Assembly: GCA_964434115.1 (NCBI GenBank)
Contig: CAYSSX010000010.1
Location: 17,795 to 81,794 of the forward strand
Length of the DNA stretch: 64,000 nt
Direction: 5' to 3'
DNA from: an uncultured bacterium
GTDB lineage: Bacteria > Omnitrophota > Omnitrophia > Omnitrophales > Aquincolibacteriaceae
Shown here: positions 3 through 22,292 of the stretch, in pieces
How the letters are laid out: every line of letters begins with the position of its first letter
How positions within the stretch are numbered: the first letter of the stretch is position 1
Translations under genes and position numbers: made by a program
The notes under the pieces: model-generated
Told to the model about the DNA's origin: nothing
The model's input: the letters and a program-made list of their open reading frames with translations, nothing else
The model's database searches: none

Positions 3-518
3 TCTTTTCAGGAGCGCGCGACCCGGGTGTCGCACCGCAACATGGGTCTCCTTGCGCACAAATGCGGGGGGAAAAAACTGGGGAAAATATGCGCCCTGAT
101 CGCGGGCGATGAAGCCCGCCATGAGCAGGCCTATCAGAATCTCTTCAAGGTTTGTCTGAAAGTCGATCCCAGTGAAGCGCTGGTCGCCATGGCCGATATG
201 CTGCTGTCAAAAGTGGTGATGCCAGCGAGACTCATGGATGACGGCTCTGGCCGTGATTTGTTTTCGGATTATTCGATTGTGGCCCAGAAGCTGGGAATTT
301 ATACGACCCGGGATTATGCGGAAATGCTGCTTTTTCTTGCGGAGACCTGGGAAATTGAGAAATTCAAAAATCTTTCGCCCGAAGCCGCGCAGGCGCAGGA
401 AAAAGTCATGAAGACCGCGGAGAAATACCTCCGCAAATCCGAGAGCCTTTCTGCAGCCATCCAGTCAATTGAAGTCAAACCCTTCTCCTGGGTCACCCCG
501 CAAAAAACCCACGCTTAA
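3..518 (+). CDS. Soluble diiron acyl-ACP desaturase (stearoyl-ACP desaturase family), C-terminal part. The 5' end lies outside the window.
   Basis: The frame is open from nt 3, and the GTG at 27 is only the ORF-caller start. The translation (SFQERATRVSHRN...ICALIAGDEARHEQAY...AMADMLLSKVVMPARLMDDG...DYSIVAQKLGIYT) aligns with the C-terminal half of plant and mycobacterial DesA-type acyl-ACP desaturases (FQERATFISHGNTARLA...IAADEKRHE...). The TAA at 516-518 overlaps the stop of the convergent giant gene. Confidence 0.8.
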   Translation, partial: SFQERATRVSHRNMGLLAHKCGGKKLGKICALIAGDEARHEQAYQNLFKVCLKVDPSEALVAMADMLLSKVVMPARLMDDGSGRDLFSDYSIVAQKLGIYTTRDYAEMLLFLAETWEIEKFKNLSPEAAQAQEKVMKTAEKYLRKSESLSAAIQSIEVKPFSWVTPQKTHA

Positions 519-3500
519 GCAGCCATCTCAATGACCAGGCTCGCCTGATAACGGGCCAGCTCTGTTTTCAGGAAGCCTTCCACCACAGAATAGAATCCGC
601 TTTCCGGGTCTTGATAAACACCGGGCATTTGACCGCCGGATCTCGCCAAGAGGAGTGCCGCAAATAAATCCCGGGACTCCGCGGCAAGAAAGCGAATCAC
701 TTCATCAGAAGCCTGCTCTTTGAGTCTTTCGGCATGCAGGGCAAAATGAACAAGCCTCGGATTCCTATCGCCTGCGGTGCCCCTTTCAAAACCTTTCCCG
801 TAGAGCTGATACGCGCGCTGCAAATCGCCTTCGATCGTAAGAATACCGGCAGCGTCACGAAGCTGCTGCATGCGCGGCGTCATCAAGGCCTCAGGATCAA
901 CACCATAAATAATGACCTTGGTGTTTTTGTCCGACCGGGTTTGGAATCCAAGCGCAAAGACGCTCTCATACAAGGGACTCTCCTGCGAGCGGATTTCTTC
1001 ATAAGAAATAAAAACGCGCGCGGGCAGCTGCGCTGTTTTCTCCAGACTCTCCCGGATTCCTCCGCCCGCACCCAGAAGCCTGAGTTCAGAACGGGAACGA
1101 ACACCCTCAGAGCTGGCCGCGTCTTTTTCCTGTCCCCGGTTTTCTTCGGCCATCCGTTCCGCGATACGGTCAAGGAGAGTGTTCAATTCCGGAACTTTTA
1201 ACGCATAAAGAAAAGACAGCGCGTAATCATCATGAAACCAGCCGAAATGATCCCGGGACCGCTGATCCATGGACTTCGAAGCGTACCGGAAGGATTCCAG
1301 AAGAAAAACATCCAGAAAACTCATGTATCTTTTCTCGCCGAGTGCAAACTGCGGGTTCCGGTTATGGTAGATTTTCAGCGCTTCATACTTCGCATCAAAG
1401 TTTTCAAGCCAATCCTGGGCTTCGGGCTTGATTTGAGCACTCAGGACCTCCGAGATTCTTTTCACATAATCACGGGTCTCTTCAGAGGCTTGGTCTAATC
1501 GGTGCGTCAGCTCCTCGGCAACGCGCTCGACCAAAAGAATCAAAAGCGCCATTCTTTTGTTGCGGAAAGCCTGCACTTCATTGAATTCCTGACCTTGCGG
1601 CATGGCGGGCGGCCCATACTTTTCAAGAGATTCCCAAGGCCGGCTCAAATGCTCCAGCAGAATTTCAGGCGCGATCATCAAACCCGGATCCCAGTTGTTA
1701 AGCTCCACAACACGCCTGCGGTTCACAAAATCAGCGTCCAGCAGAACCGACATCAGCCAATCCGTGAGATCCCCGCTCTTTAGTTTTTTTGCAACAGCAT
1801 CAATCTCAAGCATTTGGTGTTTTTCTTCCGAAGAACTCCTGTTCCAGCTCGAGACGAGCGGGTTTCCCGCATCGCGCGGGGCTTCCCCAGACGTTAAGCC
1901 CTCTTCTTGAACACGCAATTCAGAGCGGGAGTCAGCGCTTATTCTTGCGGATTCAACACGCTCTTTAACCTTGGCAAAAAGCTCTTCCGTACCTTTCTGC
2001 TCCACGCCCCCCCAATAAGTTCGTCCAAAATCCCGCGCCGGAATTCCTTCGGGCGGCTCAGGAGAAAGAGATACGAGCTGGATCCGGCGGTATTTGTCGC
2101 CGGGGAAAGGATAATCGGCCACAATCATGTCATTGCCTTTGTGGATCTTTTCGGTCATGGTTGAACCGTGCACATTCCCTGTGAGTTCGTCGCCGAAGTA
2201 ATACCCAAAACCAAGATCTATCTCCGGGCGCTCAGAGTTTTTCACAGCCTCTTCGGCGTAATGCATCAGGGCTTTGGCCTTGTTCGCATCTGCGGAAAAA
2301 ATATCGATCGAAGATTCACCGCCCACCGACAAGCTGAGATGATTCACAAAATCTTCTCCCAGCCTTTGCGCAAGGAGTTCCTTTAACCGGTCAATGATCG
2401 CGGGGCGGATTTCCGGGGGAAGTTTGGTGATGGTGATGGAGGTCGTTTCCGTGTCCGTGACCTGGCTCCCGCGAAGCTGAATGTAAGGCCCTTGCACGGT
2501 CATGGCCTTGTTTCCAAGATCATCAAAATGAACGCGTCCGGGCTGATAGGCTTCCGGGTTTTCCGCCCAGGGCAATTCATAAATAAGCCCGGGATTCTTG
2601 GATGCATCCTTGATGTACGCCGCACGCAGGGTTTCAATGCCCTCGGCATCAAGGCCAAACTTCTTCTTCCCAAACTCCACAAGCACATCATGAATGGTTT
2701 GTTCCACAACAGGCCGGGAAATACGAAGCTTGGCTTCGTAATCGGAATGTTCCACAGCGTTCCCTTTTTCATCAAACGTCACAAACACGGTTCCCGAGGC
2801 CGAGTAAACAGAGAATGAAATTCCTGAAAGAAGTTCCAGCTTCCCCTGTGCTGTTAAATAATCCTTGAGAGGATTTAAAACCTGGTCCATCACGTCTTTC
2901 ATCGGGTTTCCGGAGTTGATCACAAGCCGGACTTTCTCTTCCAGCATCCAGGCGAGTAACTGGATCATCCCCTCCGCGGCGGGCTTTCTCCGGGCTGCGA
3001 GTGTCTTCTGCATATCAAACATAAAAAATCCGCGTTCACGGATGGCATCCCAATTCGCTGAAATCTGGCGGACAAGTTCTTCCTGGGTTCCAATTTTTCT
3101 TTCCGGCGCGGCGGCTGTTTCAATCTTTGCAAAAACCAGGGCTCCGGTCGAAGAAGGATAGGGGCGGGCACTTGCCGCTGAAACAGAACTGACGCCGTCC
3201 TTCCATTTTCTCTGCATGGCATCACGGCTGTTGGCTAAAAGAAAAACTTCCCTCAGAGGGTCTTCCTCTGCCGATTTCCCAAGGGCCTTCATTTTTTCAC
3301 TGTAAAGCCTCTGAACTTCGGCCCCGAGTTCCTGAGCAGCGGTTCCCTTGCCCTCAAATTTATCGCCGATGATCACAAAAGCAACGGCCTTGCCCTCCCG
3401 GGTGATGCCAACAAGATCATGCGGATACGGATACCGTTTCAAATGAATGGAAAGTTTCCCGCCTTCAATAAAGTATTCACCTGAGGCAAGCTGTTCAAGG

Positions 3501-6500
3501 GGCCTGGGCGTTACTTTGACATATTTGCGGAACGGGTTTTCCAGGGCGTCCCGCTCAAGCTCTTCCTGGGTGTGGGCCTGAAGGTACGGCGAAAGATCAA
3601 TCGTCATGCGGCCGTCCTGCCGGATCACTTCTTTAAAACTCTCACGGTTCTCGTCACGCAGACGGACAAGCTCCTGCTGGGCCAGAGATTCCTTATAAAC
3701 ATAGGAATCAACCTGTCCCTTATCGTCCCGATGCGTTTCAATAAACTGGGGGAAAAGATAGACCTGAAAAATATCCTCAAATTGATGCGCGATGTTTTCA
3801 AAAGGTTCAGCCTGCCCTTCGTGCAAAACGCGCTGTCCAAAAAAGGCCTGCTGAATTTCAGAAGCAATATCCGTCTTCGTCAAATCCGAAGTTCTATAAA
3901 CCTTCACGGCGCCGTTTTCACCCGCGCCTTCTTCAAAAGAAAGCTCTTCGGAAGACGGCGCACGGCTTTTATCCTTCCAATTCACAAACATGCTGTAATT
4001 TCTTTGGTTAAGAGGCTCGCCTTCCCGGTGGTAGAGCCTTTTCGAAGCCCCGTCATAGAGAACAAACCAGTCCACATAATAAAGATTGTGATAGGAGTAA
4101 ATGTCCGCTTCACGGTAACCCAAAGGCCCAAGCTCAGCTTCAAGTTCTTCCCAAGGCTTATTGACTCTTCTTCCCAAGGGATCATTCTCTTCCCCGCCCA
4201 TCGCGCGCTCAAAAAGTTCACCATCCCAGTAACTTTTCCTGTTCACATGATCAAAACGGAAATGTCCGCTTGCGGTTTCATTAAACAAAATTCTCACATC
4301 ATTCTTTTGAAGATCGTAAACCTCCACAACGTGCGGTGAAGCCGGTTCAGCGGCGCGCAGTTCAGAACGCTCAACGTTCTGAACGCCTTGCTGTGCTAAC
4401 GCATTAGCGGTGGTGCGCAGTTCGGATCTTGCCGTGACCATCTTCACCCGCGGGCGCCCTTCAAGGAGAAGGCGTTTATCTTCCTGCATGCGCTCATACA
4501 TTTTGCGTGAGGGGTAAAGCTGAGTGGGACTGGGAATCCATTTCCGGACATCTCCCTTGAGGAGAAGCGCTGTCACCGCGCGCTGCATCAAGGCCTGCCC
4601 TTGATAGGCAGGAAAAACATCCGTCCGCGTGACAAAATAACTTTGATCCTTGCTCTCGCCCTTCCGGAAGGGGCCATCACCCAGTCCCTCAAGAAACGTT
4701 TCAGCGTCCTGTAAAGTCACAAACCCCATGGCGACTGGATGATCCGGGTCATTGCTCAAAATCACAAGGTGACTGTTCTTATTTCCAGCCGGGGAGGCGG
4801 CCGTGTAAGCATTCAAAAGCACCACCCGGAAAGGACCGGGCGCTGCGAGGGGCGCTTTTTCTTGAAGCAGGCGGAGAGTCTCCCTGTCAATGTCTTCCAT
4901 GTCCGCATACGAATGGTCGGCCAGAATCTCGTAATACCCGTAGCGATGCAAAAAAACCTCGTCATGGAGAAACCGGATCAACTCCCCCGGGACGGAGGCA
5001 TCGGGATTTCCCGCAGTACGAAGCTCGGAACGGTTCCGGATGACCTCACCAAGAGCTTCCCAGAGGGCCCCGAATTCCGGATCCTGATTGTCGACGCGAA
5101 GGCTTTCAAGGGTGGGATACTCCGCCCGGGGGTGAAAGACCTGCCCGTCATCTCTTGTAAAAGTCTGCGGCAGGGTGTCCTCAAGCCTTAAAAGCTTCAC
5201 AAGAAATGCAGTCCCGCGGGCTGAGGCCGTCATCGCAAGAAACCGCTCGGAGCTTTGGTTCAGATCATGAAAGTAACTCTTTAAAAATACTTCCGAGAGA
5301 TTTTCTTTACCGAGATTTGTGAGACGCACAATCACATCCGCAAGATCCAGGAACCTGTAGGCCCTCTCTTCCTCAGGGGTCATTTCCGGTGTTTTCATCT
5401 TTGTGGTATTGAGGTCTCTGAAAATAATTTCAAAGCGGCCTCTCAAAACTTCTATCCCCATGTTCGCCGGATGCGGAAAGCCGTGATAAAACCCTGCCTC
5501 ATGATAATTTCGAAGCGCCCGTCCAATCGCCTGATAAAGAACCTCTTCGGAGCCTTCGTCCATTTCACCTCCGCTTCGGGCCTGAACGGGCGCAACGGCC
5601 AGCGTCACGCCAGAACCTTCGCGCTGGCCAACCGAAGTCACGCGCCAATCGTCTCCGGTGAGACCCGCGATCACAAACCCCGCGGAATTTTCCTGGAAAG
5701 TCATCCCCGGAAAAGTGCCCCAGGCCACGGCATAATCCGTTCGGAACTGCAGCGTTTCACGGGCACGCATCATCACGGAGAATTCGGTCCGCGCATCTTT
5801 CTCCCGCATGCCTCCGGCCAGGGCCGTTTCTGCCGGAACAGCGTTCAGAACACCGCCCCGGTCAGGCACAAGGTAGCGGCGGACGCTCCCCTGTCCGGTA
5901 TAAGGCTGCACACCACCCGCCTCCGTCAGAATAGGCTTAACGCCTTTGAGACGGAGCTGCGTGATTTGAACTTTTTCCTGACTACCGCTTTTCGGGGACA
6001 CTTCCACCGGGGTTTCAAGACGCAGGTAAACACTGCGTCCTTCCTCGCTGAAATCCCCGTCTTCGTTTTTAAAATAAATCCTTCCCGAGCTTTCCCCCGC
6101 CATCCGGCGGACGTCCTCACGGCTTCCCGAAAGCAGTTTCATTAATACTTCCCGGTCATTCCGCCCGAGCTTGGCAAAAAAGCCCTGGTCTTTTTCCACA
6201 GTCACAACACCTGCCGGATCTTCCCATTCTTCACCGTCCCCAGCTGTCCTCAACTCCGAGCGCTGCATAAACTCGCGCTCGCGGCTGTTCATCACACGCA
6301 GGACTCTTCCGTAAACCTGTTCAAGCTGTTTTCTGATCTCCCCGATTTCTTCATAGTGCCGGGCTGTAAATTGCTTCGCGGCCGCGGAATTCACGGCCCC
6401 GGAACCAATCCGGTTTGCGGCATTGTGCCCGTAAATCAAAGGCTTCACACCTTCCCCGACCTCCGAATAATCGTTGAGCGGGCGGTTCGTCAAATCCTCC

Positions 6501-8914
6501 AGCACCTTGGTGCTTACCCACAAGTCATCCGCCACATCCCTTAACATCGAGTAAGTGACGCTGCGCGGAGAAAAGAGCAGAATGGTCAAAAGATTATTCA
6601 GGCCATGCTCTGTGTTTTCCCTGAAATAAAATAATTTTCGAGCCGGAGAGCCTGACGGCTCCTTTTCGGATGTGATCGAACTGAGTTTCGTCCTTTTCAC
6701 CCATTCCGGGTCAAAATCATACTTGGCAATGGAGTCCCGTATGTTCGTAAGCGCCTCCCCGATTTTCAAAATCTCGGAAGTGCGGGCTTCCTCTTCCCCT
6801 GTTTCGGGATTCTCTTTCAAAAGACTCCGCTCAAGCCCTGTCGTAAGCGGGTAAACAAATTGTTCCCCAACCTCCGAAGGGCCATAACTTTCAAACCCCG
6901 CTTTTTCAAGCGCCCGGGAAGCCACCGTAAAAGAGACTTGATGGAAATTGGCAAAATAAGGAAGCCCGACAACTTTCCGCTCACGCGCCAGACGAAGCGC
7001 ATGAATTTCAACAGCTGAAATCGGCGGTTCGGATAATTTCTCAGGGGCGCTGCTGTATTCCGCACGGAGCTCGGAACGGATTTCGACTAGATAGGCCTGA
7101 ATCGAAGCAATGTTCTCACGCGCGGGATCAAAAAGAATGTCGGCCGGAATCTCAGACTCTATGGACTTAAGCGTTCTTGAAAGAGTTCCATAATCCCTGT
7201 CACCTGCCAGCTGCCGGACAAAATCAAGACGTTCCTGTATTGTTTGGAGAATCTGAACGTACCCCATCTTTCGGACCCGCTCGATGCTCAGGCGATTTCC
7301 GGCCAGACTATTCACAAGTTCTGAGAAAAGTTCTGAAAAGCGCCCGTAAATTTCATCCTCTTGTTGCAGCGGGTCAACCTCGGCAAAATCGTCACTGCGC
7401 AGTTCCGGTCTCGATGAAAGAAGTAAATCCATTTCCGCCAGCACTTCGGCAGAATCCCCGGCCTTCACCTGTTTCGCGGCAGTTTCAACCCGCGTAATAA
7501 GCCCGCGAAGATTTGCCGATTGTTCGGGGTGTAAAACAGGAAACTCCATGGCCCGGGGCGCCACAGAGGCTCTTGCTGCGGCTTCGGGAAGAGAGAGGTT
7601 CCGGTACCCCTGCCGCATCAGCTGCTGGTAGTAGTCTTGATGCTTCCGGCTCACCCCTGTCATGCGGGGAGAAATCACATAGCAGGCATCGCCGCTCCGC
7701 TGAAGCATGGCCTTGATGCTGTCTTTATGAAACCCTCCGAAAACAAGCGCGGAGGCCGCGGGAGCGTACTTCAAAACTTTTTCGATTTTCTTGTCACGCG
7801 CCTGGGCAAGCGTGTAGAAACGGACCGCCTTGCGGATGTTCTTTTCCCACTGCCGGGAAAGCACCAGGGATTGTCCGGATTCTCGAACCAGAAATTTCGC
7901 AAGATGGCGTGTATCAAAATCTTTCAGGGTTCCCTGAAGTGCTTCGTACTCCGCTGAGGACACTTTCATTTCACTAAGGCGCCGCAAAAGCTCAATATTT
8001 TGGGTATAACTAAAAATCCTTAAGCTGTCTTCGCCCTTTAAGAATCTTCCGGCCGTGTTTTTTTCAAGCTTCTGAATCTCGGTGTAAACTCCCTTGGCAT
8101 CAATCGTCTCAACGCCCGGGGTTTCCGGCTTTTCCTCCTTCAGGGCAAGAAGCATCTTAAGCATCGGATATTCCCCCGCGTCTTCGGACTTGTCACCGGA
8201 ATGACCCAAGTCAAAAACACGCTTCACGTAATCCAGAAGCTCGATCTCACCTTCATCCAATCTCTTTTTGAGTTTCATCCACTCTTTAAGTTCATTCGGG
8301 AAAGTCCTGTCCGCGAGTTTTCTGACCTCAGAACTTAAAACCGCCAGATCGCGCTGAGTTTCCTCTTTTTGAGAAACCGATTGCTGAAAGGCCCGGATGT
8401 TTTCAAAGTGCAGCGCGATGCTGTCCGCGCCGATGAGATCGAAATTTTTTTTGCGGTTGATGTGCGCGTATTCTGCGCCGCCGAGCCTCAGCTTATCCAT
8501 CAAGTAGTAAGAGACTTTTTCACGCAGCGCAGAGTCTTGAATCCCTCCGAAATAATCATCGCTCGGAACAAGCCCTTCGTAACCTTCTTCAAAAACAGTT
8601 TTGATCCCTTGGGTTTCCATCAAAAAATTGAGGATTTTCGCGATATTTTCCTGGGCTTCCAGGGAGTCGTGGGCGTCCTGAAGGTAAAAAATGATTTTGC
8701 CGGAGCGGCCGGGATGAAACTCTTCAACCGTCCCCAGAGTTTCCGGGAGGTTCAAAGCCGTCTTGCCCTGGGACGCGGCGGGCGGCACAAAAATAGCGGA
8801 GTCGCCGGGACCGGGGTCCGCATAAACCCGGGGATCTGAAAACGGCAGACTAAGGCAAAGAAAAAGCGCCGTAAGCCGTATCAACAAGTGAAGTTCAGGG
8901 GATCTTTTTTGCAA
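515..8914 (-). CDS. Giant exported multidomain protein, 2799 aa, paralog of the 6161-aa ORF. It has a signal peptide, a shared N-terminal domain of about 400 aa, and 6 RSELR punctuation motifs.
   Basis: Single uninterrupted ORF with a TTG start at 8914-8912. The N-terminus MQKRSPELHLLIRLTALFLCLSLPFSDPRVYA-DPG reads as a Sec signal peptide. Residues ~60-420 (IFYLQDAHDSLEAQENIA...KTVFEEGYEG...GGAEYAHINRK...FGGFHK) are ~50% identical to the corresponding region of ORF 28725..47210. Exact RSELR motifs sit at nt 7064-7078, 5018-5032, 4415-4429, 4355-4369, 1913-1927 and 1079-1093. Confidence 0.8.
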   Translation of the reverse strand: MQKRSPELHLLIRLTALFLCLSLPFSDPRVYADPGPGDSAIFVPPAASQGKTALNLPETLGTVEEFHPGRSGKIIFYLQDAHDSLEAQENIAKILNFLMETQGIKTVFEEGYEGLVPSDDYFGGIQDSALREKVSYYLMDKLRLGGAEYAHINRKKNFDLIGADSIALHFENIRAFQQSVSQKEETQRDLAVLSSEVRKLADRTFPNELKEWMKLKKRLDEGEIELLDYVKRVFDLGHSGDKSEDAGEYPMLKMLLALKEEKPETPGVETIDAKGVYTEIQKLEKNTAGRFLKGEDSLRIFSYTQNIELLRRLSEMKVSSAEYEALQGTLKDFDTRHLAKFLVRESGQSLVLSRQWEKNIRKAVRFYTLAQARDKKIEKVLKYAPAASALVFGGFHKDSIKAMLQRSGDACYVISPRMTGVSRKHQDYYQQLMRQGYRNLSLPEAAARASVAPRAMEFPVLHPEQSANLRGLITRVETAAKQVKAGDSAEVLAEMDLLLSSRPELRSDDFAEVDPLQQEDEIYGRFSELFSELVNSLAGNRLSIERVRKMGYVQILQTIQERLDFVRQLAGDRDYGTLSRTLKSIESEIPADILFDPARENIASIQAYLVEIRSELRAEYSSAPEKLSEPPISAVEIHALRLARERKVVGLPYFANFHQVSFTVASRALEKAGFESYGPSEVGEQFVYPLTTGLERSLLKENPETGEEEARTSEILKIGEALTNIRDSIAKYDFDPEWVKRTKLSSITSEKEPSGSPARKLFYFRENTEHGLNNLLTILLFSPRSVTYSMLRDVADDLWVSTKVLEDLTNRPLNDYSEVGEGVKPLIYGHNAANRIGSGAVNSAAAKQFTARHYEEIGEIRKQLEQVYGRVLRVMNSREREFMQRSELRTAGDGEEWEDPAGVVTVEKDQGFFAKLGRNDREVLMKLLSGSREDVRRMAGESSGRIYFKNEDGDFSEEGRSVYLRLETPVEVSPKSGSQEKVQITQLRLKGVKPILTEAGGVQPYTGQGSVRRYLVPDRGGVLNAVPAETALAGGMREKDARTEFSVMMRARETLQFRTDYAVAWGTFPGMTFQENSAGFVIAGLTGDDWRVTSVGQREGSGVTLAVAPVQARSGGEMDEGSEEVLYQAIGRALRNYHEAGFYHGFPHPANMGIEVLRGRFEIIFRDLNTTKMKTPEMTPEEERAYRFLDLADVIVRLTNLGKENLSEVFLKSYFHDLNQSSERFLAMTASARGTAFLVKLLRLEDTLPQTFTRDDGQVFHPRAEYPTLESLRVDNQDPEFGALWEALGEVIRNRSELRTAGNPDASVPGELIRFLHDEVFLHRYGYYEILADHSYADMEDIDRETLRLLQEKAPLAAPGPFRVVLLNAYTAASPAGNKNSHLVILSNDPDHPVAMGFVTLQDAETFLEGLGDGPFRKGESKDQSYFVTRTDVFPAYQGQALMQRAVTALLLKGDVRKWIPSPTQLYPSRKMYERMQEDKRLLLEGRPRVKMVTARSELRTTANALAQQGVQNVERSELRAAEPASPHVVEVYDLQKNDVRILFNETASGHFRFDHVNRKSYWDGELFERAMGGEENDPLGRRVNKPWEELEAELGPLGYREADIYSYHNLYYVDWFVLYDGASKRLYHREGEPLNQRNYSMFVNWKDKSRAPSSEELSFEEGAGENGAVKVYRTSDLTKTDIASEIQQAFFGQRVLHEGQAEPFENIAHQFEDIFQVYLFPQFIETHRDDKGQVDSYVYKESLAQQELVRLRDENRESFKEVIRQDGRMTIDLSPYLQAHTQEELERDALENPFRKYVKVTPRPLEQLASGEYFIEGGKLSIHLKRYPYPHDLVGITREGKAVAFVIIGDKFEGKGTAAQELGAEVQRLYSEKMKALGKSAEEDPLREVFLLANSRDAMQRKWKDGVSSVSAASARPYPSSTGALVFAKIETAAAPERKIGTQEELVRQISANWDAIRERGFFMFDMQKTLAARRKPAAEGMIQLLAWMLEEKVRLVINSGNPMKDVMDQVLNPLKDYLTAQGKLELLSGISFSVYSASGTVFVTFDEKGNAVEHSDYEAKLRISRPVVEQTIHDVLVEFGKKKFGLDAEGIETLRAAYIKDASKNPGLIYELPWAENPEAYQPGRVHFDDLGNKAMTVQGPYIQLRGSQVTDTETTSITITKLPPEIRPAIIDRLKELLAQRLGEDFVNHLSLSVGGESSIDIFSADANKAKALMHYAEEAVKNSERPEIDLGFGYYFGDELTGNVHGSTMTEKIHKGNDMIVADYPFPGDKYRRIQLVSLSPEPPEGIPARDFGRTYWGGVEQKGTEELFAKVKERVESARISADSRSELRVQEEGLTSGEAPRDAGNPLVSSWNRSSSEEKHQMLEIDAVAKKLKSGDLTDWLMSVLLDADFVNRRRVVELNNWDPGLMIAPEILLEHLSRPWESLEKYGPPAMPQGQEFNEVQAFRNKRMALLILLVERVAEELTHRLDQASEETRDYVKRISEVLSAQIKPEAQDWLENFDAKYEALKIYHNRNPQFALGEKRYMSFLDVFLLESFRYASKSMDQRSRDHFGWFHDDYALSFLYALKVPELNTLLDRIAERMAEENRGQEKDAASSEGVRSRSELRLLGAGGGIRESLEKTAQLPARVFISYEEIRSQESPLYESVFALGFQTRSDKNTKVIIYGVDPEALMTPRMQQLRDAAGILTIEGDLQRAYQLYGKGFERGTAGDRNPRLVHFALHAERLKEQASDEVIRFLAAESRDLFAALLLARSGGQMPGVYQDPESGFYSVVEGFLKTELARYQASLVIEMAA

Positions 8915-9101
8915 CTTTTTCCTCGCTTATTTAAAGAAGCTCTGGCCGTGCGTCGGTAAAGATTGCCCGACGAACCGCTTTCCTTCAAATCGGGCGAAAA
9001 CCTGTTTAGCCATTGCTTAAGGATGCTAACAAATGATAGCAGGGAAAACCTCAGGAAAAGCCGTTCAGAGCACAAGCGGACTTATGTTATGATCTCGCCT
9101 T

Positions 9102-9371
9102 ATGACTGATGACCCTTTTGGAAACGAAGAGCTTCAATTTCCGCTCGACTGCCAATTCAGAATCATTGCCGAGAACCGCGAAGGCATGCATTTTGTCATC
9201 GAGACAATCTTAATCGAACAGGGCGTCACGGCACCGCTTGAGCCGCAGAATCTGTCCCACGGGGGTAAATATCAATCCTACCTGGTGATGGTCCGCGTCG
9301 AATCCAGGGATCACATGGGCCGGATTGATGCCGCGCTTCGGAACATCACCGGCGTCAAGATGGTTCTTTGA
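9102..9371 (+). CDS. YbeD/UPF0250 (DUF493) family small protein
   Basis: 89 aa. The sequence ...FPLDCQFRIIAEN...YQSYLVMVRVESRDHMGRIDAALRNITGVKMVL is typical of DUF493. Its stop overlaps the next start (ATGA at 9368-9371). Confidence 0.55.
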   Translation: MTDDPFGNEELQFPLDCQFRIIAENREGMHFVIETILIEQGVTAPLEPQNLSHGGKYQSYLVMVRVESRDHMGRIDAALRNITGVKMVL

Positions 9372-10096
9372 TGGATGTAATACCCGCCTCTTTTTTCCGG
9401 ATCCGCGAGCGCCGCTTGGAACCGGAACTCATGGATGACCTTTCGCTCGACGCGGAACTTCACCGCCAGGCGCTCAGGGGCCTTGAACGCATCAACGCCT
9501 TAAGCTTGACTGCGGAGACTTTTTGGAAACCGATAAAAGAATTTTATTTATCCGAAAAAAAACCCCTGCGGATCCTGGACATAGCCTCCGGCGCCGGCGA
9601 TATTCTGACCCGGCTTGCGTTGAAAACCCGCAAAGAAAACCTTCCCTTTGTTTTTGAAGGCTGTGATTTTAACTCCCAGGCCGTCGATTATGCAAACCAC
9701 CGCGCGAAAATCCGGAACCTCCCTGTTTCATATTTTCTCCACGATGCCTTAAGGGATCCCATGCCGGAAAGATTTGACATCGTAATCAACAGTCTTTTTC
9801 TTCACCACTTGTCCGAAGACGGGCTTGGGCAGTTTTTTAAAACACTTCATGCCTCACGGGCCCGGCTCCTGCTCATCTGTGATTTGAAACGCTCACGCGC
9901 GGGCCTGTCGCTTGCTTATTTAGGCACCCGTCTTTTGTCACGCTCCCGGATCGTTCACTGGGACGGCCCTCAATCCGTGCGTGCCGCCTTTACAACCGCT
10001 GAGATTCTTCAGTTTGTGGACTCCGCCGGACTTCCCAAGCCCCGGCTTCAGACCGTTTGGCCCCAGCGCTACTTACTGGCCTGGCACCGTTCATGA
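9368..10096 (+). CDS. Class I SAM-dependent methyltransferase
   Basis: Motif I ILDIASGAGDILTRLA, post-I acidic residue and motif II/III spacing. Translationally coupled to flanking genes. Confidence 0.75.
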   Translation: MMDVIPASFFRIRERRLEPELMDDLSLDAELHRQALRGLERINALSLTAETFWKPIKEFYLSEKKPLRILDIASGAGDILTRLALKTRKENLPFVFEGCDFNSQAVDYANHRAKIRNLPVSYFLHDALRDPMPERFDIVINSLFLHHLSEDGLGQFFKTLHASRARLLLICDLKRSRAGLSLAYLGTRLLSRSRIVHWDGPQSVRAAFTTAEILQFVDSAGLPKPRLQTVWPQRYLLAWHRS

Positions 10097-11274
10097 GTTT
10101 CTCATCCACCCTGCCAAAACCCGCCGAAAACACCCCGCCCAAAGATCTTGCTCAAAAACTTTGGGATTTTATTATTATTGGCGCGGGTCCCGCGGGTTCC
10201 ATGGCGGCTTATGAACTTTCCAAATTCAACCGCAGCATTCTTATGGTGGATCAAGCGGAATTTCCGAGGCTCAAGGTTTGCGGCGGATGTCTCAGCCGCC
10301 GGGCCCTTCAAATCCTCAAACACGCGGGACTCGGGGATCTTTCGGGAAGGCTTGGCGCAAAAAAACTCCGCGAGGTCCGTCTTTTTTCAGAAGGAAAATC
10401 CGTATCCCTTACAATTCCAGAAGGCGCGGGCCTTTCCCGTGAACGTCTGGATTCGGCCCTCGCAGCGGAAGCCATCAAAAGAGGCGCTGTTTTCTTGGAC
10501 AAAACCAAAGGCCGTTTTGACCGGGTTGAGGAAGGTTCAGCTTATGTGCATCTCACCCGCCCCGAAGGCGGAATCGAAGTCCGTGCTCAAATGGTTTTGC
10601 TCTGCGGCGGGCTTTCCGGAACAGCGTCAGGCCTGAAGGTTTCTGAGCGGGCTTTGCCTGCCAAAGATTCGCTCATCGGAATTTCAGCGGTCCTGCCTTC
10701 TTCCGCCCTGAGCGTGGAAGAAGGCGTTATTACCATGCTCTGCGCGGACGAAGGCTATGCCGGGATTACAAAAAGAGAAGACGATCAGCTGGACATTGCC
10801 GCAGCCATACAGCCTTCGTTTTTAAAGCGTTCGGGAACTCCGGGCCGGTGTCTTGAGCAGGTCTTTTCGCAAAACGGTTTCGCGGTTCCTGAAGGGCTTC
10901 ACACCGCGGCCTGGCACGGGACACAGCCCCTCACGCATTCCCAAAAAAAAGTTTCGGCGCCCCGCTGTTTTATTCTGGGAGATGCTTCGGGTTATGTCGA
11001 ACCTTTCACGGGTGAGGGCATGACCTGGGCGCTTCTTCAAGCCAGGGATTTTGCGGCACTGCTTGAAAGCCGCGGGTTTGAATGGGATGAATCCCTCATC
11101 AAAACATGGCAAAAGCGGCATCAACAGAAAATGGGCCTGAGGATGCGGGCCTGCCGCGTCATAACTTTGCTTCTTCGCTTTGCGTGGGCCAGAACAGCGG
11201 CCCTGAACACCCTGCGTGCGGCGCCCTGGCTCGCGGCCCCGCTAATCCGTTTTATTCATGGAGATTCTGAATGA
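10090..11274 (+). CDS. FAD-dependent oxidoreductase (geranylgeranyl-reductase/UbiH-like flavoprotein)
   Basis: Dinucleotide-binding motif IIIGAGPAGSMAAYEL near the N-terminus. ATG at 10090 overlaps the upstream stop (ATGA). The ORF track gives a longer alternative start at 10057. Confidence 0.7.
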   Translation, partial: FMSFSSTLPKPAENTPPKDLAQKLWDFIIIGAGPAGSMAAYELSKFNRSILMVDQAEFPRLKVCGGCLSRRALQILKHAGLGDLSGRLGAKKLREVRLFSEGKSVSLTIPEGAGLSRERLDSALAAEAIKRGAVFLDKTKGRFDRVEEGSAYVHLTRPEGGIEVRAQMVLLCGGLSGTASGLKVSERALPAKDSLIGISAVLPSSALSVEEGVITMLCADEGYAGITKREDDQLDIAAAIQPSFLKRSGTPGRCLEQVFSQNGFAVPEGLHTAAWHGTQPLTHSQKKVSAPRCFILGDASGYVEPFTGEGMTWALLQARDFAALLESRGFEWDESLIKTWQKRHQQKMGLRMRACRVITLLLRFAWARTAALNTLRAAPWLAAPLIRFIHGDSE

Positions 11275-12389
11275 AAAAAAAATCCCTTCCTAAAAAAAAC
11301 ACCTGCGTCCTTTCCGGCCTTGGGCTTTCCGTCCCGCGCCACGCCATGACGCAGAAAGAAACCGCGCTCACAGCCATCGGCCTGTCTTCCCGGGGCGATA
11401 AAGAAGTAAGCTTTCTCAAAATGCTTTACCATAAAACCAGAATTCAAAAGCGCGGCTCGGTTCTTTTTGAACGGCCCCAAGGATCTTCCAAAGCAGAACA
11501 AAACTTCTTCAAGCCCCGGAAGCATGACCTGGACCTCGGTCCGGGAACCCAAGAGCGCATGGCGGTTTTTGAAAAGAAGGCCTTTGAGCTGGCTTTACCC
11601 GCATGCCGAGCCGCGCTTCGCGCTGCCGGTTTAAAAGGTACGGCCATGACCCACCTTGTACTTGTGTCCTGCACGGGCTTTTCTTCCCCGGGCCTTGACC
11701 TTGCTTTGATCCGGAAGCTCCCGCTGAGCCTGGATATTGAGCGGGCGCAAATCGGCTTCATGGGCTGTCACGGGGCGGTTAACGGAATGCGGGTCGCGCA
11801 CGCTTTGGCCGAACAAAACCCAAAAAACAAAGTTTTGCTGATCGCGGTTGAGATTGCCTCCATTCATTACGCCTACGGACGGGGCACGGACTCTCTCGTG
11901 GCGAATTCCCTTTTTGCGGATGGCGCCGCGGCCTGCGTTCTCGCTTCCCGGAAACCCTCTTCCAAAGATTGGACGTTGAAAGCCACGGGGTCTTTTTTCT
12001 TTCCCGGGTCAGAAGATGCTATGTCCTGGAAAATCGGTAACCATGGTTTTGAAATGCGCTTGTCCGCGCAGGTCCCCGGGTTGATTGAATCAGGTTTGAA
12101 AGACCCCGTGCGCAAGTGGCTGAAAAAGGCGGGGCTGGATTTAAAAGATATCAAAACGTGGGCGATTCATCCGGGCGGCCCCAAAGTCCTGGATGCCGCG
12201 GAAAGAGGGCTGTCTTTACCTGAAAACTCTCTCAGCACGTCCCGGCTCATCCTCAGGGATCATGGGAATATGTCTTCTCCCACACTGCTTTTTATTATTG
12301 ACCGCCTGAAGCGCTCCGGAGCCCCGCTGCCGTGCGCAGCGCTGGCTTTCGGGCCCGGGCTTGTCACGGAAGCGGCCCTGTTTGTTTAG
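11271..12389 (+). CDS. Type III polyketide synthase (chalcone/stilbene synthase family)
   Basis: The Cys-His-Asn triad context is conserved: MGCHGAVNGMRVA (active Cys), WAIHPGGPKVLD (His), DHGNMSSPTLLF (Asn). Length 372 aa. Start overlaps the upstream stop. Confidence 0.8.
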   Translation: MKKKSLPKKNTCVLSGLGLSVPRHAMTQKETALTAIGLSSRGDKEVSFLKMLYHKTRIQKRGSVLFERPQGSSKAEQNFFKPRKHDLDLGPGTQERMAVFEKKAFELALPACRAALRAAGLKGTAMTHLVLVSCTGFSSPGLDLALIRKLPLSLDIERAQIGFMGCHGAVNGMRVAHALAEQNPKNKVLLIAVEIASIHYAYGRGTDSLVANSLFADGAAACVLASRKPSSKDWTLKATGSFFFPGSEDAMSWKIGNHGFEMRLSAQVPGLIESGLKDPVRKWLKKAGLDLKDIKTWAIHPGGPKVLDAAERGLSLPENSLSTSRLILRDHGNMSSPTLLFIIDRLKRSGAPLPCAALAFGPGLVTEAALFV

Positions 12390-12574
12390 TCTTCCGCTTC
12401 AGCGCTGAAATCGACGACTTCATCATCTTCAAAAGCCAGGCGGATGTGAATCGGTTTGCAGCAGACTTCGCAATCGTGGATAAAATCCTGCTTCTGCCCC
12501 GCCGTGGCATCAAGGCGGACCGCGAGTCCCTCCCCGCAGTAAGGGCATTCGAATTCAAAATCATTTTCAAGCAT
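12386..12574 (-). CDS. CPXCG-motif cysteine-rich small protein (zinc-ribbon-like)
   Basis: 62 aa. Contains ECPYCGE...HDCEVCCKP followed by an acidic tail. Overlaps the PKS stop convergently by 4 nt. Confidence 0.5.
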   Translation of the reverse strand: MLENDFEFECPYCGEGLAVRLDATAGQKQDFIHDCEVCCKPIHIRLAFEDDEVVDFSAEAED

Positions 12575-12875
12575 CTTCGGCGCCTTTTGCAGGCCTGCTG
12601 AGCCAGCGGATCAAAATCAGGGTTACTTTTCCGACCAGCCAAATAAAAAAAAGAAGCAGCAGGATCCCGACAAGAATTCTCAGAAAAAAACCAAGAACCA
12701 GAAAAAGCGGCAAAAGTAAAATTCCCAGCACCGACAGAATAGAGATCAGGGCCAGCACCAGCAGCCCCACGAAAAATGCAAGCATGAACACCTCCACACA
12801 AAAAGTTAAAAAATTCGCTCCTTCACAGCATACCTTAAAAAAAACTTTTTTTAGGACGTCTTTTAATTCCGGCAA
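12567..12875 (-). CDS. Small hydrophobic membrane protein (hypothetical)
   Basis: Three predicted TM stretches (LLVLALISILSVLGILLLPLFLVLGFFLRILVGILLLLFFIWLV). No recognisable family. Confidence 0.35.
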   Translation of the reverse strand: MPELKDVLKKVFFKVCCEGANFLTFCVEVFMLAFFVGLLVLALISILSVLGILLLPLFLVLGFFLRILVGILLLLFFIWLVGKVTLILIRWLSRPAKGAEDA

Positions 12876-12889
12876 AAGAATCTAGAAGA

Positions 12890-13204
12890 TTGTGCCCAAG
12901 CATCATTTATGCTAGCGTGATCATGTTCAAAAGGAGGTTTTCCATGAAACCGAATATGGGTTTGACTCAAAGAAAAGTCCGGAAAATTCTGGGGGCTGTC
13001 ATTATGCTGGCAAGTTTGCTTGCTCATAATGGGATTTTAGCGATCATCGGAGGCATTCTGTTTATTTCAGGAGTCATAGGTTACTGCCCCCTTTGCAGCA
13101 TCGGCAAAGGCTCTTGCGGCACCCAGGACGGGGCCTGTCACGACAATACCCCGAAAACAGAAGAACCTAAAAAAGACGGCGGCTGCTGCGGCGGCACGCA
13201 CTAA
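12890..13204 (+). CDS. DUF2892 (YgaP-like) membrane protein with a Cys-rich tail
   Basis: The region AVIMLASLLAHNGILAIIGGILFISGVIGYCPLCS resembles the DUF2892 two-helix hairpin. A C-terminal CCGG motif follows. Confidence 0.45.
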   Translation: MCPSIIYASVIMFKRRFSMKPNMGLTQRKVRKILGAVIMLASLLAHNGILAIIGGILFISGVIGYCPLCSIGKGSCGTQDGACHDNTPKTEEPKKDGGCCGGTH

Positions 13205-13215
13205 CTCCAGCCTTT

Positions 13216-13497
13216 TCAGGACGCTCCCTTTTCCTGAAGCGCTTCTTGTTTTCTTTTCCTCAAGAGCGCTTCGGGAACAGCGTCCTTCTTAATACTCTCC
13301 ACTTCAGTGATTGAAATCCACCGCGGGTTTTCCTGTTCATTTCCGGGAACAAAATAAAGTGTTGTTTCCCCCTGCGCCCCGATATGACCTTTGAGGACAC
13401 TGCCGTCCTTCATATGGATTTCATCCGCGAAAGCTTCCAGCGGCCCCTGGAAACATAGAAACGTGAGCAGCACAGGCACTAAATACAATCTTTTCAT
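13216..13497 (-). CDS. Small secreted protein (hypothetical)
   Basis: Signal peptide MKRLYLVPVLLTFLCFQGPLEAFA. 93 aa. Confidence 0.4.
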   Translation of the reverse strand: MKRLYLVPVLLTFLCFQGPLEAFADEIHMKDGSVLKGHIGAQGETTLYFVPGNEQENPRWISITEVESIKKDAVPEALLRKRKQEALQEKGAS

Positions 13498-14246
13498 GAC
13501 CGCCGCTTTCCTTCCGGTCCTTTTAAAAACGAATCAAAAAATGCAGGCCTCTCGGACACAAACACCATTTCTTTTCCGCTTACGGGGTGGATGAAAGTCA
13601 ATCCTGACCCATGCAGCAAAAGCCTTTCGGACTTCACAACGCGCCGCATGCCTTCACGCCAGCCATGGCGGATATACTGATCAAAAACACGCTCATCAAT
13701 GTAAATTTTATCGCCGAGCACGGGATGTCCGGTAAATGAGAAGTGCGCCCGGATCTGATGCTTGCGCCCGGTTTCAGGTTTCACTTGGACAAGCGCCGCT
13801 TCAGGGCCCTGCTTCAAAACTTCATAATGGGTCACCGCGGTCTCGCCTTCGGGATCAGGCTTTCTCAGGTGGAGTGAACGGCGGTGCACGGTCCCGAGCT
13901 TGATGGAAATCGTTCCCTTCTGCGGTTTGGGAACACCCAGCACCACGGCCAGATACTCTTTTTTCACTTGGCGCTTTTCGAAAAGAACCCCAAGCTTCCC
14001 GGCCATCTCTGAAGACTTGGCCACAATCACAAGGCCGCTGGTCTCAGAGTCCAGACGGTTCACGATTCTGAACCCTCCGGCTTCCGCAGGGCGGTCTTTC
14101 CGGAGAAGGCTGAGCAGGTTTTTCTCTGTAAATCTTCCCACGGGATGAACCGGCAGGGGTGCGGGCTTCTCCACAATGAGAAAACTCTCATCGTCATAAA
14201 GAATTTTGTACCCAGTCTCGACGTGAAGGTCGTCTTCGCTGCGCAT
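13494..14246 (-). CDS. RluA-family pseudouridine synthase
   Basis: Catalytic-Asp motif VNRLDSETSGLVIVAKS. Family-typical length of 250 aa. Confidence 0.8.
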   Translation of the reverse strand: MRSEDDLHVETGYKILYDDESFLIVEKPAPLPVHPVGRFTEKNLLSLLRKDRPAEAGGFRIVNRLDSETSGLVIVAKSSEMAGKLGVLFEKRQVKKEYLAVVLGVPKPQKGTISIKLGTVHRRSLHLRKPDPEGETAVTHYEVLKQGPEAALVQVKPETGRKHQIRAHFSFTGHPVLGDKIYIDERVFDQYIRHGWREGMRRVVKSERLLLHGSGLTFIHPVSGKEMVFVSERPAFFDSFLKGPEGKRRS

Positions 14247-17735: not shown

Positions 17736-18572
17736 TTACCGGACAAGGCGGATCCCATCCTCATCAATGGAAATCAGTTGCTGCCTGAAAAGCCCTCCCA
17801 AGGCCTTTTTGAATGTCTTCTTGCTCATGTGAAACAATCCGTAAATCACTTCCGGCGAGGTCTTGTCCGTCAACGGAAGAAAGCCGCCCTGGGCTTTCAG
17901 CATGGCCATGATTTCATCGGAGATATCTTCCACTTTCATGGAACCCGGGGGGTTGAGCGAAAGGTCGAGCTTTCCGTCATCGCGGATATTTTTGATATAG
18001 CCCGTCCGGCGCGTGCCTCCCTTCAAAATCTCAAAAACTTCATGCTCCAGAATAAGCCCCCAATGCAGATCATTCACAATCGCACGCCACCCAAGATCGG
18101 TCCTGTTGCAGATCAGAAGAGAAACTTCCTGGCCGGCTTCGTAGTTGGCGGGCGTCCGGTCTAGAAACTTGTCCAGCTTCGTGGAAGCCACAATACGATT
18201 CGTGTATTCATCGAGATACGCCCGCACGGTCCGCCAGTCGCCGACCTGGAGGCGCTTTTTCTGCTGGTTGAACGGAAGAATTAAATCCTTGGAAAGTCCC
18301 CAATCCAAAAAAGCGCCGTAAGAATTCACCGCCACCACTTCAAGGTAGGCAAACTCTCCCACCATAACATAGGGCTTTTCGGTCGTGGCAATAATGCGGT
18401 CTTCGGAATCTTTATAAATGAACACATCCAGGGAATCGCCGACCTTCAGTCCTTCGGGGACATAGCGTATCGGCAGCAGGATCTTTTCAAAATCAATACC
18501 GCCTTCCAGATAAAACCCGAAGTCCACTTCCTTGACGACTTCAAGGTGGTTCATTCTTCCAATCTCAATCAT
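17736..18572 (-). CDS. cvfB: CvfB/YitL-family S1-domain RNA-binding protein
   Basis: Tandem S1-like repeats and C-terminal winged-helix layout. 278 aa. Confidence 0.65.
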   Translation of the reverse strand: MIEIGRMNHLEVVKEVDFGFYLEGGIDFEKILLPIRYVPEGLKVGDSLDVFIYKDSEDRIIATTEKPYVMVGEFAYLEVVAVNSYGAFLDWGLSKDLILPFNQQKKRLQVGDWRTVRAYLDEYTNRIVASTKLDKFLDRTPANYEAGQEVSLLICNRTDLGWRAIVNDLHWGLILEHEVFEILKGGTRRTGYIKNIRDDGKLDLSLNPPGSMKVEDISDEIMAMLKAQGGFLPLTDKTSPEVIYGLFHMSKKTFKKALGGLFRQQLISIDEDGIRLVR

Positions 18573-21371: not shown

Positions 21372-22292
21372 TCAGGCATTCAAAGACGGGATTTTCCCGC
21401 CTTCTTTTATCACCACATTCATAGCGGGTGATCTGCCCAACTTATCCTGTCCCATATAAAGCGTGAGGTGCGGAAAAGGTATTTCTATATTTTTTGAATC
21501 AAAAGCCTTTTTAAGCCGCGCGTTGAATTCCCTCCCTACATTCCACTGCTTAATCGGGAGTGTTTTGATGCGTGCCTTAATCACAACAGAGGAGTCCCCA
21601 AACTTATCGAGCCCCAAAATTTCAATCGGCTCAATAATATCGGCCTTGAACGCCGGGTCACGGCGCATTTCCGCATCAACCTGACGGATCACCTCGATGA
21701 CTTCATCCGTACTTTCACGGTAGGCAACACCGATATCAAAAACGTAATAAGAAAAATCCTTGGTCATATTCGTTACGATGTCTATCTTGCTGTTGCGCAC
21801 AAAATGAACGTTCCCCGACAAGTCCCGCAGAACGATCATTCTCAAATCCACTTTTTCCACCAGCCCCCCGACGCCCGCTATATTTACAACATCCCCCACC
21901 CGAATTTGATCCTCGAGCAGGATAAAAAAACCACTGATGACATCCTCGACCAGTTTCTGCGCTCCAAAACCGACAGCAAGCCCCACAACACCGGCCGCAG
22001 CAAGAACAGGACCGATTTCAATTCCCAGAACGCCTAGAATTGTCATAATTCCGATACCTGCAATGATAACGCGGAGAGTTGCTTTGACGATGCCTGTCAA
22101 TGTATTCGCACGCTTCTCAAGCTCACCGTCATTTCTTCTGAACTTCCTAAATAATGTTTCGAGAATCTTTTCAACAACCAGATCGATGGCTCTCATGCCA
22201 ATCGTCAACAGGACAACAACGACAACGATACGAAACCCGGTGGTCACGGCCCACTGACCGACCATCTCAAGATAGTGTTCAATATTATCCAT
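21372..22292 (-). CDS. MscS-family small-conductance mechanosensitive channel
   Basis: Three N-terminal TM helices and a conserved pore/beta-domain region. Confidence 0.75.
   Translation of the reverse strand: MDNIEHYLEMVGQWAVTTGFRIVVVVVLLTIGMRAIDLVVEKILETLFRKFRRNDGELEKRANTLTGIVKATLRVIIAGIGIMTILGVLGIEIGPVLAAAGVVGLAVGFGAQKLVEDVISGFFILLEDQIRVGDVVNIAGVGGLVEKVDLRMIVLRDLSGNVHFVRNSKIDIVTNMTKDFSYYVFDIGVAYRESTDEVIEVIRQVDAEMRRDPAFKADIIEPIEILGLDKFGDSSVVIKARIKTLPIKQWNVGREFNARLKKAFDSKNIEIPFPHLTLYMGQDKLGRSPAMNVVIKEGGKIPSLNA

Follow-up and report, generated by a model that had tools for sequence, protein, structure and literature searches.

A probable hidABC-type phenolic-lipid operon behind a DUF493 gene in an uncultured Omnitrophota bacterium

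Introduction

The stretch of DNA analysed here (64,000 nucleotides, hereafter the window) belongs to an uncultured bacterium of the Omnitrophota (Omnitrophia; Omnitrophales; Aquincolibacteriaceae) and covers positions 17,795 to 81,794 of contig CAYSSX010000010.1 in GenBank assembly GCA_964434115.1. At 9102-12389 it carries a compact run of four co-directional genes for a DUF493 (YbeD-like) protein, an S-adenosylmethionine (SAM)-dependent methyltransferase (MT), a flavin adenine dinucleotide (FAD)-dependent oxidoreductase and a type III polyketide synthase (PKS). We found that the last three genes (9371-12389) are very probably a phenolic-lipid operon of the hidABC type, also known as the mtr-fdo-t3pks type, and that the DUF493 gene in front of them is probably a resident gene. 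Such operons have been discussed for cyanobacteria and planctomycetes, and the window extends them to an Omnitrophota genome; our literature search turned up no earlier account of such a PKS cassette from this phylum.

Results

Layout of the four-gene run

An original prediction, made from the letters of the window, had described a four-gene type III PKS cassette in which the genes overlap by 4 nt at every junction. All four open reading frames (ORFs) lie on the forward strand where they had been placed, and profile matches put each of them in the family it had been given. The genes and the signals around them are as follows (coordinates in the window).

9064-9093, forward strand: sigma-70-like promoter match (TTCAGA, 18-nt spacer, TG-extended TATGAT), from a consensus scan alone
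9102-9371, forward strand: DUF493/HP0495-family (YbeD-like) gene, 89 aa, first in the co-directional run
9369-9373, forward strand: DUF493 stop/MT start junction TGATG, from sequence
9371-10096, forward strand: HidA-like class I SAM-dependent MT, 241 aa (alternative start 9368)
10093-10096, forward strand: MT stop/FAD start overlap ATGA, from sequence
10093-11274, forward strand: HidB-like FAD-dependent oxidoreductase, 393 aa (alternative ORF start 10057)
11260-11264, forward strand: Shine-Dalgarno-like GGAGA, 6 nt 5' of the PKS ATG and within the end of the FAD gene
11271-11274, forward strand: FAD stop/PKS start overlap ATGA, from sequence
11271-12389, forward strand: HidC-like type III PKS, 372 aa

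The claimed 4-nt overlap is present between the FAD and PKS genes. The MT and FAD genes also overlap, but at 10093-10096 and not at 10090-10096, and at the DUF493/MT junction (cTTTGATGg) an overlap of 4 nt is obtained only from the TTG at 9368, whereas the ATG at 9371 overlaps by 1 nt. The stop/start overlaps suggest that MT, FAD and PKS are translationally coupled. Co-transcription of DUF493 with the cassette is likely. The promoter match stops 8 nt before the DUF493 ATG, and the cassette probably uses the promoter of DUF493. In the closest relative (locus L084 of the survey described below), both the TTTGATG of the junction and the segment from the -10-like block through to the ATG (CTTATGyTATkATCTCGCCTTATGAC) are kept. 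We regard 9064-9093 as a candidate promoter of the four-gene unit, for which conservation in L084 is no proof of function. At the other end, the PKS stop and that of a convergent CPXCG zinc-ribbon gene (12386-12574, reverse strand) overlap by 4 nt, and therefore no space is left there for a terminator; a scan for intrinsic terminators within and after the operon returned 7 candidates against 9.0 expected from shuffled sequence, none of them convincing. No Rfam match to a riboswitch or other known RNA was obtained at E<=1 across 8800-13300. Recent horizontal transfer of the cassette was considered and is unsupported, as there is no anomaly in GC content or in GC at third codon positions (cassette GC 0.53-0.55, window 0.52) and no transfer RNA gene was found within the window.

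The ketosynthase

The ketosynthase (KS) matches both type III PKS domains well above the Pfam cutoff of 27 bits (Chal_sti_synt_N 83.6 bits, E 2e-23; Chal_sti_synt_C 79.8 bits, E 3e-22). Its Cys-His-Asn catalytic triad is intact, with C166 in GFMGCHG, H300 in WAIHPGGP and N333 in HGNMSS; the three residues are invariant in homologue alignments of 24 and 14 sequences, and the motifs that bear them align with the matching motifs of Mycobacterium tuberculosis PKS18 (1TED). Among 109 PDB matches the best 60 are type III PKS-family enzymes, headed by 4b0n (named only 'Polyketide synthase III'), M. tuberculosis PKS18 and Dictyostelium Steely1, and none of the matches listed is named FabH. On these sequence grounds we assign the KS to the type III PKSs and not to FabH, which upholds the original call; placement with FabH, the outcome that call had named against itself, was not obtained. 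That the KS could be a FabH-type enzyme of primary metabolism, standing in a gene run that arose by chance juxtaposition, has next to no probability. It can point to weak secondary matches (ACP_syn_III 32.8 bits, with ACP_syn_III_C below gathering; fabH TIGR00747 41 bits), which are as expected for a KS of the thiolase fold, and the latter score is far under the model's cutoff of 292 bits; chance juxtaposition is also at odds with the recurrence of the ordered gene triad described in the next section.

The window enzyme scores much higher with PKSs of Hid-type triads (~350-450 bits) than with mycobacterial PKS18 1TED (157.5 bits) or with 7cb3 (147.3 bits; listed with the best-scoring mycobacterial structures, its source organism unchecked), and it is presumed from these homologues to be a HidC-like long-chain alkylresorcinol synthase. 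A rough neighbour-joining (NJ) tree, which has no outgroup and is indicative only, groups it with the uncultured sequences L084, L082, L086, L085 and P0005-P0011, near the Omnitrophota PKS L054 and apart from the cyanobacterial and planctomycete groups. The window PKS sequence is also present in sequencing run SRR16481186. One further residue bears on the mode of cyclisation: W253 is an invariant Trp that aligns with a Leu of PKS18. From its offset to the catalytic His it may correspond to Gly256 of chalcone synthase, and it may likewise be equivalent to W281 of ArsB.

The ordered triad in related loci

To place the cassette we used 80 genome and 80 metagenome loci around the best PKS relatives, plus the contigs of the closest homologues, so that the window and 175 fetched loci make up 176 sequences (individual loci are cited by handles such as L084). 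Six-frame ORFs of these sequences were searched with the four window proteins. Most comparators are contigs of metagenome-assembled genomes (MAGs), junction statistics use heuristic start calls, and absence of the cassette from a relative means absence at that locus, not genome-wide.

MT, FAD and PKS genes stand in this order on one strand in 117 of the 176 sequences, and in a further 33 the PKS lies too near a contig end for the triad to be judged. The hosts include Planctomycetota, Cyanobacteria, Hydrogenedentota, Gemmatimonadota, Acidobacteriota, Elusimicrobia and some Proteobacteria, including a Halomonas and an Alcaligenaceae MAG; no actinobacterial locus was present among the best 160 PKS relatives fetched. 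Across these phyla the triad proteins are 34-45% (MT), 33-37% (FAD) and 43-49% (PKS) identical to those of the window, and the matches are nearly full length in Cyanobium gracile UHCC 0139 (42, 37 and 44%, respectively) and in a Gimesia sp. (43, 34 and 45%). The tight junctions, too, are a trait of the triad family and not special to the window locus: of 115 related loci, 101 have overlapping MT and FAD genes, and in 105 the FAD and PKS genes overlap or lie <=30 nt apart.

The characterised systems fall into two arrangements. In hidABC (Cyanobium sp. LEGE 06113, Costa et al. 2019; hierridin-like clusters occur in picocyanobacteria) the same three families occur in the same order and orientation in a short, tight operon that makes hierridin B; HidC makes the alkylresorcinol, HidA O-methylates it (recombinant HidA methylates 5-pentadecylresorcinol; PMC6836626), and HidB is the proposed ring hydroxylase (PMC6836626, PMC8086630). 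The window differs in its host, in the DUF493 gene that fronts the unit and in its PKS, which belongs to the uncultured clade described above. In planctomycetes (Gimesia maris, Rhodopirellula baltica) the mtr-fdo-t3pks operon likewise has the same families and order, with the PKS last; of 96 type III PKS genes from planctomycetes, 58 stand at the end of such a tricistronic operon (Milke et al. 2024, PMC10896814). Expressed in C. glutamicum, the planctomycete triad PKSs yielded pentadecyl- and heptadecylresorcinols, co-expression of the G. maris MT and flavoprotein added one methyl group that is probably C-linked, and a deletion mutant had no clear phenotype of the classical kinds (PMC10896814); the product class expected from this comparison is C15/C17 alkylresorcinols with one further methylation. 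The genes flanking the planctomycete triads are not conserved, which fits a cassette placed in differing backbones, and DUF493 has 0 occurrences in that paper (PMC10896814).

The srsABC cluster of Streptomyces griseus and pkqABC of Mycobacterium smegmatis share the enzyme classes (PKS, MT, flavoprotein) and the expected chemistry, in which an alkylresorcinol is methylated and hydroxylated to a quinone, with alkylbenzoquinones as products (PMC9927152). Their order is PKS>MT>oxidoreductase, whereas the PKS comes last in the window. The original prediction had remarked on this difference from srsABC. The difference is real; since hidABC and the planctomycete operon share MT>FAD>PKS, the order of the window is standard for its closer family (PMC10896814, PMC6836626). 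The assignment of the triad to phenolic-lipid (alkylresorcinol) cassettes is borne out by domains, homologues and the ordered triads of the survey.

The methyltransferase and the flavoprotein

The MT matches Methyltransf_25 (E 6e-10) and NCBIfam PRK06202 (E 1e-58; 198.6 bits, under the cutoff of 243 bits) and has ILDIASGAGD as SAM motif I; its identity to the first triad gene of Cyanobium gracile and Gimesia is 42-43%. PDB sequence searches with the MT and with the DUF493 protein gave marginal matches only.

The flavoprotein matches FAD_binding_3 (E 2e-12) and shares 34-37% identity with the middle triad gene of Cyanobium and Gimesia. Its sequence contains a GxGxxG motif, in the form IIGAGPAG, as well as the GD motif LGDASGYVEPFTGEG and a KVCGGC that is invariant. 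With the geranylgeranyl-reductase model TIGR02032 it scores 112 bits (E 4e-32) against a cutoff of 158.8, which marks it as a relative of that family and not a member. In an alignment of HidB-type flavoproteins K-x-C-G-G is invariant (window residues 61-66), with C63 invariant and C66 nearly so. This motif is reminiscent of geranylgeranyl reductases, although the literature treats HidB-type enzymes as hydroxylases. An AlphaFold2 (AF2) model built with 47 homologues has a pLDDT of 91 and the p-hydroxybenzoate-hydroxylase fold, and Foldseek matched it to aromatic hydroxylases, phenolic halogenases, PqsL, squalene epoxidase and geranylgeranyl reductase, in every case at about E 1e-22 and 16-19% identity; with scores this equal, the fold does not fix the reaction. 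The halogenase motif WxWxIP (searched as W.W.IP) was not found in the 393-aa protein, and the Pfam Trp_halogenase match spans only the N-terminal FAD-binding residues 26-63. By analogy with the characterised pathway the enzyme is most likely a ring hydroxylase, because hierridin-type products require hydroxylation. In a protein of 635 aa from a JGI metagenome (P0183), a HidA-like MT is naturally fused to a HidB-like FAD oxidoreductase, a Rosetta-stone fusion that links the two tailoring enzymes functionally.

DUF493: partner or resident

The first protein of the run is a full-length member of the DUF493 family of Escherichia coli YbeD and Helicobacter HP0495 (PF04359 E 3e-13, 50.6 bits against a cutoff of 24, residues 9-89; NCBIfam HP0495_fam 46.9 bits against 45). 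To our knowledge, no function has been assigned to this family, and we found no association of DUF493/YbeD with a PKS in the literature searched. As a partner of the PKS, the role implied by its inclusion in the predicted cassette, it does not hold up. A phmmer search of the first 80 genome loci found no DUF493 beside a triad; a DUF493 subfamily hidden Markov model run on all 176 sequences (E<=1) placed one beside the triad in the window and L084 alone; and among 111 small co-directional ORFs that directly precede the MT in 105 testable loci, the Pfam DUF493 model recognised 2, again those of the window and L084, which are of one lineage. DUF493 is thereby rejected as a general partner of the cassette. 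The triad lacks DUF493 upstream in the other 103 of the 105 loci, and no other family recurs directly upstream of the MT among the 111 small ORFs. L082 and L086, the nearest other cassette-bearing relatives (PKS 53-55% identical), have MT-FAD-PKS facing PseudoU, with a DUF1223 gene but no DUF493 upstream.

Orthologues of the window DUF493 are 68-85% identical in Candidatus Omnitrophica MAGs. In four other neighbourhoods they persist at 68-75% identity with no PKS genes there, so that DUF493 looks like a conserved, single-copy Omnitrophota backbone gene with variable neighbours, in distinction from the E. coli and Helicobacter proteins with which it shares its family.

Context 1 (L091-L093): VTT, acyl-ACP desaturase, DUF493 facing PseudoU, ADH, GHL10, aminotransferase, CvfB, RNase H
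Context 2 (L088, L089, L178): VTT, desaturase, DUF493 facing a giant gene
Context 3 (L094, L095): DUF493, GIY-YIG, GST
Context 4 (L176): BrkB beside DUF493, facing FKBP

Only 2 of 105 triads adjoin DUF493, and its orthologues persist in these four PKS-free neighbourhoods. This is most simply explained if DUF493 belongs to the resident backbone and is not a dedicated biosynthetic component, with the cassette lying behind it in one lineage. The alternative is that all four genes form a functional module, into which DUF493 (ACT-like, of the YbeD kind) was recruited in this lineage as a regulator or a handler of acyl substrates. TTTGATG is kept between the window and L084 despite identities of only 73% in the MT and 65% in the FAD protein, there is no space for a separate MT promoter, and related genomes have DUF493 directly after an acyl-acyl carrier protein (ACP) desaturase; E. 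coli ybeD, which lies beside lipB, the gene of another acyl-ACP-using enzyme, would turn this into a recurring acyl-ACP theme. We nevertheless consider a module quite improbable, given the single lineage, the PKS-free orthologues and the cassettes of L082 and L086. The conserved C-terminus GVKMVL is intact and all orthologue-invariant positions are unchanged in the window copy, and a sign of neofunctionalisation is therefore absent; overlapping gene ends also occur elsewhere, for example in the convergent DUF493/PseudoU overlap of L091. A specific version, in which DUF493 was captured into the phenolic-lipid operon with a role in acyl-thioester supply, such as sensing or delivering acyl-ACP or acyl-CoA starters, is a long shot. 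If true, it would unify three neighbours of the family (the desaturase of related genomes, the type III PKS cassette and E. coli lipB), and the locus would be the first functional handle on an uncharacterised family of many bacteria.

Proposed pathway and its alternatives

With DUF493 read as resident, the three enzymes of the hidABC-type operon suggest a short pathway. By analogy, the type III PKS would load a long fatty acyl thioester from the general pool, probably C16/C18 acyl-CoA or acyl-ACP, and, as in characterised homologues that are 43-49% identical, would add three malonyl-CoA and close the tetraketide by decarboxylative aldol cyclisation to a 5-alkylresorcinol. The MT, whose enzyme class is assigned from sequence, would then methylate the ring; the characterised MTs differ here, with O-methylation by Cyanobium HidA (PMC6836626) and probable C-methylation in Gimesia maris (PMC10896814). 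The FAD enzyme would most likely hydroxylate the ring with O2 and NAD(P)H, giving a methoxy-alkyl-hydroquinone-type lipid. Candidate physiological roles are an envelope lipid, an allelochemical and a redox-active quinone.

Several points weigh against this reading. The length of the chain, its mode of cyclisation and the site of methylation are all extrapolated across the same 43-49% identity, and the Cyanobium and Gimesia loci compared here are from congeners of the characterised strains, not from those strains. For the FAD protein, the fold search does not tell a hydroxylase from a halogenase or a reductase; Milke et al. detected no product attributable to Fdo and left its role open (PMC10896814), and one hidABC review describes the flavoprotein step as a reduction (PMC8086630). 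The TGATG junction shared with L084 could likewise reflect a genuine functional coupling of DUF493.

Two other outcomes concern the end product. The same chemistry might end in a polyketide quinone that serves as an electron carrier of the membrane, and not in a structural or allelopathic phenolic lipid, like the product of pkqABC in Mycobacterium smegmatis and Streptomyces sp. MNU77: pkqABC and srsABC share the PKS, MT and oxidoreductase content and give alkylbenzoquinones (PMC9927152), and a hydroxylated, methylated alkylresorcinol amounts to a hydroquinone- or quinone-type head group. This is unlikely in our judgement, as the gene order is that of hidABC whereas pkq and srs begin with the PKS, the window PKS scores much higher with Hid-type triads than with PKS18 or 7cb3, and the planctomycete deletion mutant showed no clear classical phenotype (PMC10896814). 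Alternatively, the PKS might lactonise its chain, so that alkylpyrones and not alkylresorcinols are methylated. Single residues switch cyclisation in related PKSs (ArsB W281 versus ArsC G284; PMC6274091), a Trp at the ArsB W281 site is no guarantee of resorcinols (DquA; PMC9827899), and PKS18 and PKS11, both of them pyrone synthases, are among the best-scoring structures. Every tested PKS of an MT>FAD>PKS operon (HidC and those of Gimesia maris and Rhodopirellula baltica) gave alkylresorcinols (PMC10896814, PMC6836626), and the window enzyme has its invariant W253 where PKS18 has Leu, with the reservation made above about ArsB W281; pyrones are thus very improbable. A hidABC-type alkylresorcinol pathway remains the reading we prefer.

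The desaturase and the genomic backbone

The following features surround the four-gene run.

3-518, forward strand: soluble acyl-ACP desaturase, C-terminal half only (PF03405 E 2e-46)
515-8914, reverse strand: giant ORF, 2799 aa, with homologues in L084 and L088
12386-12574, reverse strand: CPXCG zinc ribbon (PF14255)
12567-12875, reverse strand: membrane protein, 102 aa, with homologues elsewhere in L082 and L086
12890-13204, forward strand: YgaP-like transmembrane protein with a Cys-rich tail, between cassette and PseudoU
13216-13497, reverse strand: ORF, 93 aa, between cassette and PseudoU
21372-22292, reverse strand: MscS-type mechanosensitive channel; only a 67-aa ORF at the equivalent position in L084
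28725-47210, forward strand: second giant ORF, 6161 aa

The desaturase that the original prediction had named, as pure speculation, as a source of unsaturated starter chains does exist, cut by the window edge and ~8.6 kb upstream of the cassette; the gene ~9 kb downstream (21372-22292), also considered as a desaturase, is the MscS channel. The suggested link to the PKS is not borne out. An ORF of 8.4 kb on the opposite strand separates the two, and the Omnitrophota relatives L088, L091 and L178 have a conserved run of VTT-domain protein, desaturase and DUF493. Desaturase and DUF493 also adjoin in relatives that have no cassette at this locus. Old synteny with DUF493 therefore explains why the desaturase lies near the PKS, and we reject it as part of the cluster. 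A monounsaturated acyl pool could feed the PKS, for which gene position is no evidence. In L088 the VTT-desaturase-DUF493 run adjoins opposite-strand START, LMF1, HGLS and M48 peptidase genes, a neighbourhood that looks lipid-related.

The window shares the backbone order of L091 (PseudoU at 13494-14246, ADH, GHL10, aminotransferase, CvfB and RNase H; aminotransferase 95% identical) and is syntenic with GCA_018883425.1. Relative to L091 it has an extra giant gene in the desaturase/DUF493 interval, and the cassette plus four small genes (12386-13497) in the DUF493/PseudoU interval; all four small genes are in L084 and none in the L091 backbone. The 2799-aa product has no Pfam match at E<=0.001. 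Its homologue in L084 is 71% identical and in the same position, and that of L088 (54-59%) lies downstream of DUF493 and not between desaturase and DUF493; the position of the giant gene relative to DUF493 thus differs between lineages. Giant genes have been reported as typical of Omnitrophota (bioRxiv 10.1101/2023.11.21.568195); the giant ORFs of the window, the synteny above and the source names of the DUF493 orthologues all fit that phylum.

L084 has the arrangement of the window, and of its PseudoU synthase only a 120-aa remnant is left, for which no gene is called. Identity between the two is high for the aminotransferase (99%), ABC-F (94%), CvfB (94%) and ADH (92%) and low for the PKS (81%), MT (73%), giant protein (71%), FAD protein (65%) and DUF922 (60%). 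This uneven divergence would fit either a much higher rate of evolution in the cassette than in the housekeeping genes of the backbone, or recombination in parts of the region.

Discussion

The above analyses leave the current understanding of these operons unchallenged: the cassette represents a known three-gene operon type in unremarkable form, here found in Omnitrophota. Its supposed peculiarities have ordinary explanations, namely an order that is standard in the family, a resident DUF493 gene and a syntenic desaturase. The DUF493 gene is also a caution that a seemingly translationally coupled leader gene can be a resident with a cassette behind it.

The ordered triad occurs in many more phyla than the surveyed literature describes, and this spread supports the view of the triad as a mobile, self-contained phenolic-lipid module. 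Omnitrophota are very small, possibly host-dependent or predatory cells, for which a membrane-active phenolic lipid would be a candidate envelope or interaction factor.

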